Virus record (IMG/VR): IMGVR_UViG_3300020202_000046
Span: 1-41,181 of that record
Source of the DNA: a virus
Length of the DNA: 41,181 nt
Reading direction: 5' to 3' (one strand)
In this document: piece by piece, positions 2,262 through 37,908 of the stretch
Layout of the letters: every line of letters begins with the position of its first letter
Numbering within the stretch: position 1 is the first letter of the stretch
Translations under genes and position numbers: made by a program
The notes under the pieces: model-generated
The model's database searches: none
The model's input: the letters and a program-made list of their open reading frames with translations, nothing else
Told to the model about the DNA's origin: nothing

Positions 2262-2290
2262 AAAATACAACCAATAAGTGTTATTGTCAA
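2262..2290 (-). promoter_or_regulatory. PR-like sigma70 promoter for the leftward operon
   Basis: Minus strand reads TTGACA (2290-2285), a 17-nt spacer, then TATTTT (2267-2262). The promoter is embedded in a 33-bp block that is about 30/33 identical to 4641-4673. Confidence 0.7.
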
Positions 2291-2305
2291 CACTTTTTGA
2301 GTGTT
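2277..2305. promoter_or_regulatory. operator region: three hexamer half-sites AGTGTT-N6-AACACT-N5-AGTGTT
   Basis: Read directly at 2277-2282, 2289-2294 and 2300-2305. These form two overlapping palindromes that cover the -35 of the PR-like promoter. Confidence 0.6.
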
Positions 2306-2373
2306 TGATGTTTACAACCTCTAGTTGTAGGATTTTACCCATGACACTATCAGGCCATAATCTTTTAAGCGCC

Positions 2374-3003
2374 ATGAAGGAAAGAAAGTTATCCAAGGAG
2401 CAGGTCGGCAGGATTTTGCTGGCCATGAAAGAAAAGAAAATGTCTCAGGCCGGACTGGCGGTGCTAATCGGTGTACGTCAGCAAACTATACAAAAAATAT
2501 TGGCTGGAAAGATAGGTTATTCTAACCAGATCATGGCTATTGCCCATGCACTGGACCGATCTATTGATTGGATTATGGGCGGCGCAGAAAAATTGCCAGC
2601 AGCTACCTTGGTGACTATCCTTTCTTGGATGGATATTGTAGAGTATGCAGCTTGCACGGAGCTAGATAGGGACAAGCTAGAAAAAAATAAGGAGAAAGTC
2701 CCTGTGTATAAAAAAGGATTTGAAAAATGCAAAGCGCTAAAAATTAATAACAGCTTAATGGAGCCTAAATTTAAGCCAGGCGACATTATCTTTGTTGATT
2801 TAGATAAAACGCCTAAAGATGGAAGTTTTGTAATCGCCTATAAGAAAGGTTCTTCTGAAGCCATGCTAAAGAAAATTGATTTTGATGGTGGGGATGCATA
2901 CCTCAGCTCTTTAGACAAAGATATTCCAAAAATAAAAGTTACTGATGATATTAATATTTTTGGTGTTGTTGTTTATAAGCAGCCGCCAGGCGAAGATATT
3001 TAA
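2374..3003 (+). CDS. cI: CI-like repressor: N-terminal XRE-type HTH + C-terminal S24 (LexA-like) autopeptidase
   Basis: MKERKLSKEQVGRILLAMKEKKMSQAGLAVLIGVRQQTIQKI parallels the lambda CI N-terminus. The C-terminus has NNSLMEPKFKPGDIIFVD (Ser nucleophile motif) and MLKKI (Lys). Start could also be ATG 2341. Confidence 0.85.
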   Translation: MKERKLSKEQVGRILLAMKEKKMSQAGLAVLIGVRQQTIQKILAGKIGYSNQIMAIAHALDRSIDWIMGGAEKLPAATLVTILSWMDIVEYAACTELDRDKLEKNKEKVPVYKKGFEKCKALKINNSLMEPKFKPGDIIFVDLDKTPKDGSFVIAYKKGSSEAMLKKIDFDGGDAYLSSLDKDIPKIKVTDDINIFGVVVYKQPPGEDI

Positions 3004-3034
3004 TTTTAAATAGAGGCTTAACACAGGGGAAATC

Positions 3035-3469
3035 ATGAAAAAGATTATTTTTTCGTTTCTAGCTTTAATGGTTATTGCAGGATGTGCAACCCATCGATAT
3101 GCGTATACTGAAACGCCATTAGGCGATAATTCCTATAAGATAATCTCCCGCGGCAATCCTTTTACCGCTCCGCCTAAAGTCCAAAACAAGTTCTTTAGGC
3201 GTTGCGCTGAGCTTACGCTTGATGGCGGTTATAAATATTTTACTCTTACTCCCGTGAACGAAGTGGTGGCCGCGAAGGAAAATGAGCCATCACAAGGTTT
3301 TGATTTTAGAGGGCCACCTTTACCGCAACGTACTTACATTCTAAAGATGTTTAATAGCAAGCAAAAAGGCGCGCATATGTATGATGCCAGGACTATTTAT
3401 AATAGTCTTGCCAGCAGGCGCATGATTAGACGAATGGAAGAAAGAACTTACGCCAGAAAATATTATTAA
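3035..3469 (+). CDS. lipoprotein (144 aa), cargo downstream of cI
   Basis: Signal peptide plus lipobox: MKKIIFSFLALMVIAGC. RGNPFTAPPKVQNKFFRRCAELTLDGGYKYFTL resembles the CC0125/CC1285-type lipoprotein pattern (recalled from memory). Confidence 0.75.
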   Translation: MKKIIFSFLALMVIAGCATHRYAYTETPLGDNSYKIISRGNPFTAPPKVQNKFFRRCAELTLDGGYKYFTLTPVNEVVAAKENEPSQGFDFRGPPLPQRTYILKMFNSKQKGAHMYDARTIYNSLASRRMIRRMEERTYARKYY

Positions 3470-3485
3470 CTTTTGGGAGTCAAGC

Positions 3486-4217
3486 ATGTCTCAACTAACT
3501 TATTTTAGCCATGCGAGTAATTTTACCGGATACATGGAGAAAATATTAAAAATGATCGCCAAAGATGGCTCAGGGTCTAATAAAACTGCTTTGGATTTTC
3601 CAGCTGGCAATGGTTTAATGTGTGATGGGCTAAAAAAGCAAGGATTTGCTGTTACTGGCGCCGACATCAATGGCGCGAGGAAAGATTTTGTAAAAGCGAA
3701 TTTAGAAGAGAAACTTCCTTTTTTTGATAACGAATTTAATTATACGTTGTGCTTAGAAGGCCTTGAGCATCTTTTAGCGCCAGCTCAGACCATAAAAGAG
3801 CTAGTGCGCGTTACAAAGGAAGACGGCTATATTATTATCAGCACTCCTAATATACAAAACGCTTTCAGTAGGTTTATTTTTTTATTTACTGGTGAATTTT
3901 ACCAATTTAATCCACGCTACTTTTTTAATATAAACCGAAAAGAATTATGCGACAGAGGCCATATTAGCCCTTTAAGCTATTACCAACTCGTTTATTTATT
4001 TAAACTTTATCATTGTAAACTAGTTGATGTTGAGGGTGACAGATATAAGCGTAAGGCTTTGGCTCCTTTTTACTTGGCTGTTGCGGCCATTAATTATTTG
4101 TGGTTTTTATTCAGCGGAAAGAGAAGGTTAGAAATCTATAAATTTTCTTTTTCTACGAAACTGCTATTAAGTCGTTCTATAATTTTAAAATTCAAGAAAA
4201 ACCAACCAGGGCTTTAA
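3486..4217 (+). CDS. class I SAM-dependent methyltransferase (no DNA-MTase motifs), cargo
   Basis: LDFPAGNG (motif I), GADIN, CLEGLEHL and GYIIISTPN are present. There is no DPPY/NPPY or PC motif. Confidence 0.7.
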   Translation: MSQLTYFSHASNFTGYMEKILKMIAKDGSGSNKTALDFPAGNGLMCDGLKKQGFAVTGADINGARKDFVKANLEEKLPFFDNEFNYTLCLEGLEHLLAPAQTIKELVRVTKEDGYIIISTPNIQNAFSRFIFLFTGEFYQFNPRYFFNINRKELCDRGHISPLSYYQLVYLFKLYHCKLVDVEGDRYKRKALAPFYLAVAAINYLWFLFSGKRRLEIYKFSFSTKLLLSRSIILKFKKNQPGL

Positions 4218-4263
4218 AGCTAGGGCTTAGTGACCCAAACCCGCTCTTGGCTGGCTTGTACTA

Positions 4264-4494
4264 TTATAAGTCATTAATCTCTGGAAATAAATCTCCCATC
4301 TGGACGTCGAGAACCTTGGCTATTTTTATCATGTTTCGGATGGATGCGTTTTGTTCACCGCGCTCAATGCGCCCCATATAAGTACGTCCCATCCCGGCCC
4401 TAGCGGCTAACTCTTCTTGAGACAGCCCCTTTAGCTTCCTTATTTCTATTATTCTCTCACCTATTTTTACAAGGTTTTGTTGCTTTTTATCCAT
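4264..4494 (-). CDS. XRE-family HTH protein (76 aa), divergent from the PL-like promoter
   Basis: IGERIIEIRKLKGLSQEELAARAGMGRTYMGRIERGEQNASIRNMIKIAKVL is a typical XRE HTH. ATG 4494 is preferred over the TTG start at 4536 used by the track. Confidence 0.75.
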   Translation of the reverse strand: MDKKQQNLVKIGERIIEIRKLKGLSQEELAARAGMGRTYMGRIERGEQNASIRNMIKIAKVLDVQMGDLFPEINDL

Positions 4495-4640
4495 CCGTGG
4501 AATAAGCCAAAATACACCCGATAATGCCACACCCAATAAGTGCCATTCTTTGACACATAGACAAGCATATAGTAGCCTATCAGGGGCTAAATTTCCCTTG
4601 TATTAAAAGTCTAAAAAAATATCCTTCATAAAATACAACT

Positions 4641-4677
4641 AAAAAGTGTTGACAATAACAACTTTTGGTTGTAATCT
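4641..4677 (+). promoter_or_regulatory. PL-like sigma70 promoter with operator, near-duplicate of the PR region
   Basis: TTGACA (4649-4654), a 17-nt spacer, then TAATCT (4672-4677). AAAAAGTGTTGACAATAACAACTTTTGGTTGTA aligns with the reverse complement of 2266-2298 with 3 mismatches. Confidence 0.7.
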
Positions 4678-4836
4678 GCGTTTGTTCTCTTCTGCTGGTG
4701 AATCTATCTGGAACCCTAGATAGCTTCGTGCAACCCAGCGGGAGAGGACACCCTAAAGCCAAGTAACACCATTCTTGGCGGCGGGGCTAATGCCCAAGCT
4801 GCTGCTTGTTTATAGCCTTCGTCCATAAGTGATATA

Positions 4837-4954
4837 GGCGGCAGTGGCAAGGGCACCAATGCGGTAAGCGTGCTGACACGCGGTCAGCGAATAAGGGGGT
4901 TCTTTGTTACCCCTTGATTCCACAACGCCGGCAACCAGTCCGGCTACCGCTCCA
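4837..4954 (+). ncRNA. tRNA-derived structured element C (118 nt) at the 3' end of the PL leader
   Basis: GGCGGCAG...CTACCGC-T-CCA closing helix (7 bp with one C.A mismatch). Internal hairpins: GCGTG-CTGA-CACGC (4868-4881), AAGGGG-N11-CCCCTT, GCCGG-CAACCAGT-CCGGC. Its ends are homologous to elements A and B. No ORF covers it. Confidence 0.55.
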
Positions 4955-4971
4955 CTAACTAGGGAGGATGT

Positions 4972-5310
4972 ATGAATAGCAAAGAATTAGTAGAAAAAGC
5001 ATTGAATGATGCAATACCACAAATAGTGGAAAACCTGAAAAAAGATATTCAATCCCATGTCACCTGGGAAATAAAAGAACAAATATCAAAAAATGTCATA
5101 GGGGCAGTTAACGAATGGTTTGAAAAAGAAGTTTTGCCGGAGATTAAAATTTTACTTACAACGGAAAAAGCGGGCGTGTTGGGTAGTGTTCCTGAATTGG
5201 CTAATGGAATTAATAAACTGCTAGCTGATTCTTTAATTGAAACAGCAAAGAAAAAACTAGAAAGCGAGTACAACAAGAGAGAAGTATTTAAAGCCCTTTT
5301 TGGATATTAA
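4972..5310 (+). CDS. hypothetical early protein (112 aa)
   Basis: Track ORF, first gene after the PL leader. SD is AGGGAGG, 5 nt upstream of the ATG. Confidence 0.75.
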   Translation: MNSKELVEKALNDAIPQIVENLKKDIQSHVTWEIKEQISKNVIGAVNEWFEKEVLPEIKILLTTEKAGVLGSVPELANGINKLLADSLIETAKKKLESEYNKREVFKALFGY

Positions 5311-5502: not shown

Positions 5503-5938
5503 ACACAGATTAAACAGCCCAATCAGCGCAAAGAACGAGTTGGATTTGCACGTTGAGCAGCTATACAGCGAAGGACATCGCAGCTATGACGATTTAGACG
5601 AGCACGATATAGAAATACTGACCAGCATGATCATGCATCAGTGTAATCGCTCTGGGCGCTTTGAGTTTATAAGCGAAACTGACGTAGCGGATGAAGTGGC
5701 TAACCGCTTAGCGCATCTGCTGCTGGACCCACAGCCAGAAGAGGCAAAAGAGCTTATTGAAGTTATGAAGAGCGGCGCTAAGAAAATGGCCGAAAAGCGT
5801 ATTAACGAACTGCTTAATCTTGAAGCTACCTTTGAGAACTACCGGCACCCGATACATCAGCCGAGCGAAGAAGATTTGCTGCTAGCCGCGCATCAGCGGG
5901 AAGTGGCGCAAGAAATGAATGGGGGTTTATATGCGTGA
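5495..5938 (+). CDS. hypothetical early protein (147 aa)
   Basis: Track ORF, translationally coupled on both sides. Confidence 0.7.
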   Translation: MRKHRLNSPISAKNELDLHVEQLYSEGHRSYDDLDEHDIEILTSMIMHQCNRSGRFEFISETDVADEVANRLAHLLLDPQPEEAKELIEVMKSGAKKMAEKRINELLNLEATFENYRHPIHQPSEEDLLLAAHQREVAQEMNGGLYA

Positions 5939-23842: not shown

Positions 23843-24708
23843 TAAAACATTCCCCCTATAAGCGAACTAATCCCGCCACCCATTTGCTGATTGTAGGTAT
23901 TAGCGCCAGCGTAAGCGTTTTGCGCCTGAGCCAATAATTGCTGTAATAGGCCTTGCGACATCATTCCAGAGGCATTAAAGCCTTGATCGCTCATGTGCGA
24001 CATGCCCGTTAATCCGGTGTCGTACATACCTATGCCGTGATTTAAATAGTTGTAATAATCTTGATTCGCCAGATTATTGATCGTGCCAGCAATGTTTTGC
24101 TGCTGCATGGGACTGCCCAACATCCCGCCTGCTGCTGACGCTCGATTTGCCGCACCCTCTGCTTGCTGCGTTTGAAATTGATAGCCTGGCGATTGCTGAA
24201 AACCTGCGCCGATTTTATTCATGACTGCGCCAGGATCATTAACTAATTTATTATTTTCAGCGTTAAGCGTTCCCATGGCGGATTTGCCCGCATCAATGTA
24301 CGGGTTTAAATATTTGCCCATGGAGCCTTCAATGCTGCCCAAATAAGGATCGGCGGCATCCGAGGGATTTTTAGCAAAAAACATATTAAATAAACCATTT
24401 GCAATACCGCCCATCCTGCCGCCTGGTGTTTGGCTGCCTAATGAACTCATGAGTCCGCCGCCTCCACCTCCGCCGCCAGAACCGCCCAGCATCGACATCC
24501 AATTGCTGCCGCCCCCTCCGCTTGAGCCACCGCCCATTGAGCCGCCCATTAAGCCTTGTTGCGAGCTATAAGCCCCAGAGCCGCCCTGCGGATTAAAATA
24601 ATTCTGGCCAAACGGTACTTGACTGCCGGAACCGCCGCCCTGCGAACTATCGCCGCCTTGCGATTGCAGCATTTGCATAAGGAGCGGTAAAAAATAAGCG
24701 TATGCCAT
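23842..24708 (-). CDS. Gly/Met/Gln-rich low-complexity virion protein (288 aa)
   Basis: Track ORF. GGGSSGGGGSNWMSMLGGSGGGGGGGG tracts are present. It lies in the ejection-protein position. Confidence 0.45.
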   Translation of the reverse strand: MAYAYFLPLLMQMLQSQGGDSSQGGGSGSQVPFGQNYFNPQGGSGAYSSQQGLMGGSMGGGSSGGGGSNWMSMLGGSGGGGGGGGLMSSLGSQTPGGRMGGIANGLFNMFFAKNPSDAADPYLGSIEGSMGKYLNPYIDAGKSAMGTLNAENNKLVNDPGAVMNKIGAGFQQSPGYQFQTQQAEGAANRASAAGGMLGSPMQQQNIAGTINNLANQDYYNYLNHGIGMYDTGLTGMSHMSDQGFNASGMMSQGLLQQLLAQAQNAYAGANTYNQQMGGGISSLIGGMF

Positions 24709-35923: not shown

Positions 35924-36226
35924 CTAAAAATTCTCCACAAAAAACTTCTCAATCACGGCCTCAAACGCCTTAATATCAAACTCGCCGCCCTCGCCGCTTT
36001 GGCGGCCAATCCAGACTTTATCGGGGCGAGTACCATTTGCGATGAATAAATCGCCTATATTAATGCGATCATCCAGATTAATACCGACTACAGGAAATGC
36101 GCCAGTATTATCAGGAATTTTAAATTCCTCGCCTTGGCTCCTTTTTATGTGTTTTATGATGGCCTTTCTAAACCTTTCTTTTTCATCTGGCGTTCTGTCT
36201 TTCAGCATTTCTAATGACTCGCTCAC
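35924..36226 (-). CDS. hypothetical protein (100 aa)
   Basis: Start moved to GTG 36226 (GTGA overlap with the DUF2829 stop, GGAGGTGG SD). The track uses TTG 36241. Confidence 0.55.
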   Translation of the reverse strand: MSESLEMLKDRTPDEKERFRKAIIKHIKRSQGEEFKIPDNTGAFPVVGINLDDRINIGDLFIANGTRPDKVWIGRQSGEGGEFDIKAFEAVIEKFFVENF

Positions 36227-36429
36227 TCCACCACCTCCCAATCATCGGCCAGGACATCTTCTACCCTAAGATTATCAATTTGATGCAAAATAGATTCTCC
36301 GTTTTCCTCGGTATAAAAATACATTTCTCCTGCATTTATGAATATCGGGAAAGTTGTGCGGCTTTCACTTATTTTTCTCATAACAGGTTTCCCCGCCTTC
36401 ATCGCTTCAAGTGCTTGGCTGAAGTTCAT
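36223..36429 (-). CDS. DUF2829-family protein (Tad2-like)
   Basis: MNFSQALEAMKAGKPVMRK at the N-terminus and EDVLADDWEVVE at the C-terminus are the classic DUF2829 termini. Confidence 0.7.
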   Translation of the reverse strand: MNFSQALEAMKAGKPVMRKISESRTTFPIFINAGEMYFYTEENGESILHQIDNLRVEDVLADDWEVVE

Positions 36430-36878: not shown

Positions 36879-36946
36879 TTCAATCCTCCGCACCGCATTT
36901 TTTACATTCTAAATTTAAATCACTCATCATTCCTCCTTATCTAAAC

Positions 36947-37052
36947 TGGAGGCGGCAGGATGGACTCGAACCATCTAGGGCGCGCGCATTAGCTTGCCGA
37001 TTGCCCACTTGTAGCTAACCAAGCGCGTGTCACCAGCCACGCCGCTACCACC
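36947..37052 (-). ncRNA. tRNA-like element B (106 nt): cloverleaf-compatible non-canonical tRNA
   Basis: Minus strand: GGTGGTAG-CG-GCGTG(GCTGGTGA)CACGC-G-GCTTG(GTTAGCTA)CAAGT-[31-nt arm closed by GGGC/GCCC]-GATGG(TTCGAGT)CCATC-CTGCCGCC-T-CCA. All helices were checked by hand. No ORF covers it. Confidence 0.6.
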
Positions 37053-37557: not shown

Positions 37558-37606
37558 GATATATCCCCTGTTTTGTTTTAAGTCGTTTATACTGCTGTTT
37601 AGCCCC

Positions 37607-37631
37607 GCGTTATTGCTGAGCTTGAGTACAC
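37607..37631 (-). repeat. 25-bp direct repeat copy 1 (minus strand GTGTACTCAAGCTCAGCAATAACGC)
   Basis: Identical to 37857-37881, read directly. Intergenic. Confidence 0.9.
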
Positions 37632-37643
37632 TTTTTTATTTGC

Positions 37644-37832: not shown

Positions 37833-37856
37833 ACTGTTCTCCTTGATTCAGGCTCT

Positions 37857-37881
37857 GCGTTATTGCTGAGCTTGAGTACAC
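37857..37881 (-). repeat. 25-bp direct repeat copy 2, overlapping the -10 and initial transcribed region of the 37880-37908 promoter
   Basis: Identical to 37607-37631, read directly. Confidence 0.9.
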
Positions 37882-37908
37882 TATAGCGCATCGCTATAAG
37901 CATGTCAA
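37880..37908 (-). promoter_or_regulatory. near-consensus sigma70 promoter inside the leftward gene block
   Basis: Minus strand: TTGACA (37908-37903), a 17-nt spacer TGCTTATAGCGATGCGC, then TATAGT (37885-37880). Confidence 0.65.

Follow-up and report, generated by a model that had tools for sequence, protein, structure and literature searches.

What is the structured RNA that lies directly before the first early gene of this phage, and which strands close it? The window, meaning here the whole 41,181-nt stretch of DNA that was analyzed, is a temperate phage of ~41 kb that was assembled circularly with a 127-nt terminal overlap. It encodes an integrase and a P22-like portal, the latter only ~20 to 23% identical to P22-like portals, and it is without a close relative among deposited phages; near and distant BLAST searches against INPHARED phages with the leader, element B, and neighboring genes gave no useful match. 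An earlier note on this DNA had proposed three related elements, A, B, and C, the last of which was thought to place a tRNA-shaped structure on every early transcript. We find that the third element is better framed as a shorter one, termed C' (4861 to 4954), and we consider it probable (roughly 0.7) that C' is a decayed tandem copy of an element of a phage tRNA-like RNA family, with both elbow loops (D loop GACRGUGA and T loop UKCAAUU) lost. That figure applies to the structural and evolutionary reading; the mechanism proposed below is held far more tentatively, and our confidence in the two blended together falls slightly short of even.

The early leader of the phage

The S24-type repressor region (2278 to 4536) has operator-like sequence copies on both sides, at 2266 to 2298 and 4641 to 4673. 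These copies form a 33-nt inverted repeat (91% complementary); TTGACA occurs in each of the two divergent early control regions, and the copies are probably shared operators for the S24 repressor. A candidate early rightward promoter/operator (4641 to 4677, plus strand) was recognized from sequence only, with TTGACA at 4649 to 4654, a 17-nt spacer, and TAATCT at 4672 to 4677. The term "PL leader" used in the earlier note is plausible on account of this arrangement inside the operator-like repeat, but it is unproven; the consensus promoter scan did not list the promoter at 4649, which is weak by consensus. RNA transcribed from 4649 would start near 4684.

A leader of ~287 nt separates the candidate promoter from the first early gene at 4972, which codes for a 112-aa product. 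This protein is an orphan, and other contigs with the same gene are identical copies of the window phage. The whole leader folds far better than its shuffles (z-score of -5.0), and the minimum-free-energy fold of 4680 to 4990 begins with a long 5'-terminal hairpin of ~28 bp plus an internal loop (4683 to 4750, plus strand), whose length is sufficient for an RNase III-type substrate or a 5' stabilizer. A site scan found no terminator-like site in the leader.

Ends and closing helix of the element

As claimed in the earlier note, GGCGGCAG is present at 4837 to 4844 and CTACCGC-T-CCA at 4944 to 4954, and the tail ends 17 nt 5' of the ATG at 4972. Between the tail and this ATG lies the SD AGGGAGG (4961 to 4967). 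The three interior hairpins of C likewise exist as they had been written, and its T loop is noncanonical. A search of the window for GGYGGYAG followed 70 to 135 nt on by CTRCCGCCTCCA, with one error allowed, gave exactly three matches, namely, A, B, and C, and none in 300 dinucleotide-preserving shuffles. The ends of C therefore resemble those of A and B beyond chance, and the three elements are related. From this near-identity it had been argued that C is closed by GGCGGCAG and CUACCGC (4837 to 4844 with 4944 to 4951) and presents the tRNA shape of A and B on every early transcript. Indeed, a helix using 4837 to 4848 reached a pairing probability (P) of ~0.9 when 4837 to 4954 was folded alone and two registers were summed. 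However, the closing helix in the proposed register was not borne out by thermodynamics or by the single available homologue: its pairs had P values of at most ~0.16 when C was folded alone (2 of the 7 pairs were near 0) and of 0.00 in the full leader, and it includes a C.A mismatch and a deleted base. The predicted partner of GGCGGCAG in the leader lies upstream, where 4792 to 4806 and 4837 to 4854 would form a 13-bp helix (4792 to 4854, plus strand) that takes up GGCGGCAG with a P value of ~0.99; its pair probabilities are 0.95 to 1.0 in leader context.

Searches with known models were also negative for C. A canonical tRNA is a cloverleaf whose acceptor spans 7 bp, whose anticodon loop has 7 nt, and whose T loop reads UUCRANY; the corresponding model (RF00005) and ARAGORN did not recognize C, the latter returning nothing down to an 80% threshold and just a different, spurious parse at 70%; an Rfam scan at E values of ≤10 gave no tRNA, tRNA-Sec, or C4 match, and a scan of the whole window at the gathering threshold gave no match at all. 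C likewise did not match the covariance model R2 of the family described below at E values of ≤10 with filters off, and the result was the same with model R1. Folded alone, C did not stand out (z-score of -1.9 versus -3.2 for A). Several other candidates were tried and rejected: a miRNA match to C in the Rfam E-value scan was due to chance; an own promoter in the TAATGATTTAT flank has no -35 element and nothing in the promoter scan, and a -10 element there would place the start inside the helix; a small ORF (MAVAAW... or MVVAAW...) has no SD, and C has no ATG; and anti-SD sequestration showed small energy differences only.

The best partner of the 3' strand CTACCGC (4944 to 4950) was found to be not GGCGGCAG but GCGGTA at 4861 to 4866. 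Pairing of GCGGTA with TACCGC (4945 to 4950) had a P value of 0.98 to 1.0 alone; the value dropped to ~0.8 when short flanks were included and to 0.26 when the whole leader of the window was folded. Since a true tRNA-Tyr at another phage locus (L216) also had a P value of 0 when folded with its flanks, context folds alone cannot settle the closing helix. The re-framed element, C', has the architecture of a four-way junction on the plus strand, in which a 6-bp closing helix is combined with three hairpins. The 5' strand of the helix, GCGGUA (4861 to 4866), is preceded by AAU, i.e., U at -1 and A at -2. The D-arm-like hairpin GCGUG-CUGA-CACGC (4868 to 4881) has the D stem of the family and a loop shortened from 8 nt to 4, and it competes with UGCUGAC-ACGCG-GUCAGCG (4871 to 4889). 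The central hairpin CGAAU-AAGGGGG-loop-CCCCUU-GAUUC (4889 to 4920) folds and represents a variable "bottom" arm. The T-arm-like hairpin GCCGG-CAACCAGU-CCGGC (4927 to 4944) abuts and stacks on UACCGC (4945 to 4950), the 3' strand of the closing helix, after which comes the tail UCCA (4951 to 4954). The spacer CUAACU, the SD (4961 to 4967), and the ATG (4972 to 4974) complete the region from 4955 to 4974 and are kept with C' as one cassette.

The comparative evidence came from the leader of a second phage, L219. Window positions 4858 to 4975 are homologous to L219 positions 594 to 693, with 81% column identity up to ATGA; within the first 32 nt of the alignment, AATGCGGYAAGCGTGCTGACACGCGGTCAGCG, the two phages show a single difference, and CGGCTRCCGCTCYACTAACNARGGAGGATRTATGA follows. 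The proteins encoded downstream are unrelated (BLASTP E value of 11). C', the spacer, the SD, and the ATG thus travel as a cassette ahead of unrelated first genes in two phages. AAU precedes G1 of C' in both. In L219 the closing helix is GCGGCA/TGCCGC, a compensatory change from U-A to C-G, and the two substitutions involved, which compensate each other, are the only ones in the 12 closing-helix columns. In the alignment, all 31 cells were paired, compared with 19 to 55% in slid controls, and the L219 helix had a P value of 0.98 to 1.0 isolated and 0.85 to 1.0 in the whole L219 leader. As C' has one homologue, this covariation rests on a single pair, and a two-sequence shuffle control reached the same covariation in 250 of 500 shuffles, which does not separate it from chance. 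A T-arm-like hairpin, GCCG-AGUAAAUA-CGGC, occupies the same place in L219 as 4927 to 4944 does in the window, and most of the central hairpin is absent. GGCGGCAG has no counterpart in the L219 leader, whereas GCGGYA is kept and covaries. The comparison therefore favors 4861 to 4866 with 4945 to 4950 over the helix proposed in the earlier note, does not support the 5' boundary at 4837, placing it instead at 4861, and leaves the longer, GGCGGCAG-closed element improbable. Most simply, GGCGGCAG at 4837 is a leftover or coincidental second copy of a B-type acceptor strand; this accounts for the likeness of the ends of C, but the conserved pairing partner is another strand. Additional homologues were sought with a model built on C' and L219 (R3), which found none in 1.67 Mb of related loci, and with an 18-mer from the conserved hairpin, which gave chance or coding matches only.

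The strong structure of the leader, the 13-bp helix upstream of C', and the ability of the tail CUCC to pair with GGAG of the SD could also point to a switch, in which mutually exclusive helices (4777 to 4782 with 4798 to 4803, 4792 to 4806 with 4837 to 4854, and the closing helix of C or C') set SD access or read-through. However, the leader lacks a terminator-like site, its upstream half is unconserved in L219, SD opening energies are alike between the forms, and GC-rich GCN repeats pair promiscuously, so a switch appears unlikely. The 31 of 32 nt shared between two otherwise diverged phages make the hairpin module AAUGCGGYAAGCGUGCUGACACGCGGUCAGCG the best-conserved stretch, and it lies in the early leader before the first gene. 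In lambda and P22, the lambdoid nutL site is found in the same place. The module might accordingly be a nut- or boxB-like binding site for a protein or polymerase, with the tRNA-like frame incidental. We consider this quite unlikely, because a boxA-like sequence is absent, the loop does not resemble GNRA, the protein from the first gene is not rich in arginine, the leftward operon has no second copy, and the identity of the hairpin stem with the family D stem is a simpler account of the sequence.

The early-leader position, the acceptor-like stem, and the encoded CCA further recall the antisense RNAs C4 of P1/P7 and CI of P4 (RF01695), which are cut from an early leader by RNase P via an acceptor-like stem. 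At ~77 nt, those RNAs carry two loops complementary to their targets and lack a D/T elbow. C differs from them in having no model match and no targets: its complementarity to the window was at chance (9 ten-mers versus 8.6 expected), and the longest complementary match, of 12 nt, fell on an untranscribed strand. An RNase P-processed antisense immunity RNA of this type is thus extremely improbable for C and, as far as sequence can tell, excluded.

A family of tRNA-like RNAs in phages

Element B (36947 to 37052, minus strand) is a full member of the family, with scores of 84 bits for R2 and 30 bits for tRNA-Sec. It has an 8-bp closing helix that contains two G.U pairs and, after a CG linker, a D arm (GCGUG-GCUGGUGA-CACGC); an interior of 49 nt separates this arm from the canonical T arm (GAUGG-UUCGAGU-CCAUC). 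These G.U pairs, together with family-wide covariation of the closing helices, bear out the earlier reading of the elements as RNA on the gene-sense strand. In L216, a homologue (38% identity) of the gene 3' of B sits directly behind the genuine tRNA-Tyr, and the 3' flanks of B and of this tRNA are homologous (TTTAGATAA(A)GGRGGAAT.ATG); B therefore occupies a phage tRNA slot. The SD/ATG after B appears duplicated relative to L216, and a 16-codon ORF, MMSDLNLECKKCGAED, is found at 36926 to 36876 (minus strand), between the SD of B and the position at which the 150-aa gene actually starts.

Other features were noted around B. A 14-nt stretch of B, CCATCCTGCCGCCT (36959 to 36946), is fully complementary to a minus-strand transcript in a 288-aa gene (24411 to 24424), which is probably due to chance between GC-rich stretches in a GGCGGCAG-rich genome. 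Upstream of B lies the strongest promoter-like site seen (37908 to 37880, minus strand; TTGACA-17-TATAGT), and the first small gene that follows this site is flanked by a 31-nt direct repeat (37602 to 37632 and 37852 to 37882, 94% identical). Two Tad2-like (PF11195) small proteins are encoded at 36223 to 36429 (minus strand) and ~9368 to 9577 (plus strand), one of them just 3' of the operon partner of B.

Element A (8454 to 8585, plus strand) is a partial member, matched by R2 at its ends only (23.3 bits; E value of 5e-4). It shares 28 nt at the 5' end with B, including the flank TAATGATTTAT, and has the ends of B plus an internal T-loop hairpin at 8499 to 8515; the terminal T arm is absent. 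Its closing helix had a P value of ~0.9 in context. A lies just 3' of a gene pair, AAA_24 and an SSB-like gene ending in "...DDIPF," as family members do at 7 other loci. Loosely, A can be called a remodeled family member. Downstream, an intergenic repeat, ...CACCAACGGCA..AGGTTAAATTATG, occurs in three copies (9772 to 9802, 10033 to 10063, and 10213 to 10243) and ends in the start codons of small early genes.

Relatives were reached via the terminase gene; one of them, L233, clearly has a homologue of B, in which both the closing helix (GTTAGTAG/CTATTAAC) and the D stem covary. A model built from B and L233 (R1) matched members in L219, L125, and L246. These members lie at L219 457 to 595, L125 1729 to 1855, L246 5429 to 5593, and L233 1044 to 941 (minus strand). 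In a five-member alignment, 98.8% of cells were paired, compared with ~40% in slid controls, and 12 of 17 pairs had double changes. In the family plan, an 8-bp helix closes the element, the D arm bears the motif CGGCGYGGACRGUGAC, the interior varies, and the T arm stacks on the 3' strand of the helix. When viral contigs were scanned with a 17-nt D-arm pattern, of which the closing helix and T arm are not part, at least 120 loci were matched. Among the matches listed, at least 54 loci (within L266 to L385) had a perfect 8-bp closing helix and an adjacent 5-bp T stem with a T-like loop; in each of these, the helix begins 7 nt ahead of the motif and its far end immediately follows the 5-bp stem. 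The 54 loci contain 38 different closing-helix sequences and are 100 to 239 nt long. We estimate the chance expectation for such loci at well under one. The interiors (45 to 180 nt) are unrelated to each other, and most members are without an anticodon arm. Scans with the 14-mer GGTAGCGGCGTGGC and with a both-ends pattern gave chance or coding matches only; a 20-mer 5' motif scanned over viral, metagenome, and genome collections gave coding matches, e.g., YGGSGV glycosyltransferases, except for the L125 contig.

In tRNA, the D and T loops meet at the elbow in the G18-psi55 contact. Among the matches listed, the D loop GAC-G-GUGA was accompanied by a T loop U-U-C... in 12 of 12 cases, and GAC-A-GUGA by U-G-C... 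in 41 of 42. This covariation corresponds to the G18-psi55 contact or to its replacement by A18-G55, and formation of a tRNA elbow by the family RNAs is therefore almost certain. Among the T loops, UGCAAUU rather than UUCRANY is the commonest. The 5' flank consensus is TTTAT; among the matches listed, U(-1) is present in 32 of 54 members and A(-2) in 29 of 54, an SD-like motif lies within 30 nt in 11 of 54, and the 3' tail of the 54 is not CCA.

Several further units were observed near members or in other contigs. A second tRNA-like or family-like unit lies directly 3' of a member in L246 (5598 to 5667), where the T loop TGCAATT recurs with an aberrant anticodon loop, and in the 3' flanks of L376 and L382, which suggests tandem arrays. 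An extra interior T-loop hairpin, as in A, is present in L299, L313, and L349. In L125, a genuine tRNA-Pro is followed ~125 nt further on by a bare B-type 5' fragment (acceptor strand plus D arm, GGTAGTAGCGGTGCGGACAGCGACGCACGCG; 1462 to 1500) that directly precedes an SD. A structural scan found a 129-nt element (5580 to 5708) in L022, an unrelated viral contig; this element is closed by an 8-bp helix and contains two T-loop hairpins. L233 (1455 to 1265, minus strand) and L124 (3500 to 3716) have a common intergenic element, GATCGAAGAGCCTCTNATTGTGC ... GGTATCACCTTTTAA, followed by an SD, with GGTTCGATCCC inside the L233 copy; a scan of the L233 copy against Rfam gave no match.

Among known RNAs, bacterial tRNA-Sec (RF01852) is similar in that its model aligns over its full length with both B and the L233 member. 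In each of the two, an 8-bp acceptor is stacked on a T stem of 5 bp, 2 nt link the acceptor to the D arm, and the extra region is long; the L233 member also has a 7-nt loop, UUUCAAC, with UCA. The tRNA-Sec class itself is marked by an 8/5 acceptor/T stack, a D stem of 6 bp, and UCA in the anticodon loop. However, the scores of the two members (30.0 bits for B and 30.4 bits for the L233 member) are below the gathering score of 47 bits, C has no match, the interiors are unrelated, and most family members are without an anticodon arm. Rfam E-value scans of A and B gave sub-threshold tRNA-Sec or tRNA matches only, and no member scanned reached the threshold of any Rfam 15 family. In tmRNA, the tRNA-like domain has an acceptor/T stack and a D-loop analogue, and a long insert replaces the anticodon arm. 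Unlike tmRNA, the family is without a tag reading frame, G3.U70, or a conserved CCA, and an ARAGORN tmRNA search was negative.

Plant mitochondrial t-elements are tRNA-like structures within mRNAs beside coding regions, at which tRNA-end enzymes make mRNA ends (PMC1920247). The mode proposed here for A, B, and C' would be analogous, although t-elements belong to another kingdom and have no sequence relationship to the family. Among bacterial Y RNAs of the YrlA type, of which one is processed by RNase P, the tRNA-like part is permuted, with a closed "acceptor" stem-loop between T and D, and is accompanied by a GNCGAAN0-1G Ro-binding module and a Ro60 neighbor (PMC4201824). Those features were not found here: there was no Rfam match, the GNCGAA motif was absent, and there was no TROVE protein among ten large ORFs scanned. 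No description of the family turned up in the literature that could be searched, and it is apparently a large, widespread, uncatalogued class of phage RNA.

C' as a probable family derivative and its possible action

C' is called a family derivative because of its stem identities and its position; R2 does not match it. The stem GCCGG/CCGGC at 4927 to 4944 is among the two commonest T stems of the family, and an A/U-rich 5' flank ending in AU precedes G1 (CCAAU|G for the window, UUAAU|G for L219, and TTTAT|G as the family consensus). In L219 the C' stretch lies immediately 3' of a full member (457 to 595), and tandem and fragmentary copies of family elements occur elsewhere. The family D signature, CGGCGYG-GACRGUGA-CRCGY after a CG linker, is absent from C', in which the loop is CUGA and the linker is a single A. 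The family T loop, U(G/U)CRAYU, is absent as well, both from the 8-nt loop of C' (CAACCAGU), which is unconserved, and from its L219 counterpart (AGUAAAUA). The helix abutting the 5-bp T-type stem is 6 bp long, versus a norm of 8 bp; the 8-nt strand favored in the earlier note pairs poorly. What survives of the "tRNA-shaped" description of C is therefore the four-way junction only, since both elbow loops are missing and no tRNA model is matched. A structured derivative of the tRNA-like family does stand before the first early SD; SD proximity is not general in the family.

The loss of both elbow loops could also mean that C' is a functionless relic hitchhiking with a recently exchanged promoter-proximal cassette, its conservation reflecting recent common descent. 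The bare 5' fragment in L125, the tandem and partial copies adjoining other members, and the finding of only two homologous leaders are consistent with a relic. However, between the two phages the closing helix underwent a compensatory exchange at one pair, whereas the central arm and loops diverged or were deleted, and the 32 nt around the D-like hairpin differ at one position beside wholly unrelated genes. We regard the relic as a serious rival, if a minority one.

The sequence relationships, helices, covariation, and conserved cassette are results of the analysis; the action of C' is a proposal that we advance only tentatively. Should the decayed copy be functional, it would act in cis, as a compact junction, on an early transcript presumed to arise from the promoter at 4649. 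C' would fence the structured upstream leader off from the ribosome-binding site. Its acceptor/T-stem-like stack, with U(-1)A(-2) on the 5' side and UCCA on the 3' side, might offer a site to host tRNA-end enzymes, the features relevant to RNase P being the stacked 6-plus-5-bp helix, U(-1), and, in the window, UCCA. RNase P would cut at 4860/4861, and RNase E or exonucleases would act after 4954, which would leave the first early mRNA with a short, defined 5' end. The UCCA tail is not a family feature, and UCUA takes its place in L219; as the CCA is unconserved, the argument from RNase P and RCCA is weakened. The computed cost of opening the SD fell from 4.6 kcal/mol to between 3.1 and 3.5 kcal/mol on hypothetical processing; as SD opening energies changed by only 1.5 to 3 kcal/mol, any effect on translation could be small. 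Full members would use the same machinery through their intact elbow, releasing a stable small RNA. That they are handled by host tRNA-end enzymes is the best-supported of our inferences: they have the elbow and a 13-bp acceptor/T stack, U(-1)A(-2) tends to precede them, and they are situated in operons and in tRNA slots.

For annotation, C' indicates that common end motifs are insufficient to define an element and that the pairing partner should be checked against homologues. Plant organelles, RNA viruses, Y RNAs, and tmRNA all offer precedents for tRNA mimicry inside mRNAs. A broader proposal, which we rate as rather unlikely in its entirety, is that A, B, and at least 54 relatives are a new class of phage noncoding RNA that keeps the "top half" of a tRNA (acceptor/T stack and D/T elbow, often with A18-G55) as a scaffold for host tRNA enzymes; the hypervariable insert would be the payload (a regulator, or a decoy against tRNA-directed defenses), and C' would be a cis-acting derivative shaping the 5' end and translation of the first early mRNA. 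One genome presents three stages of the family: an intact member in B, a remodeled one in A, and a decayed one fused to a ribosome-binding site in C'. If host tRNA enzymes do cut and stabilize the family RNAs, this would be a general route by which phages achieve operon punctuation and small-RNA expression.
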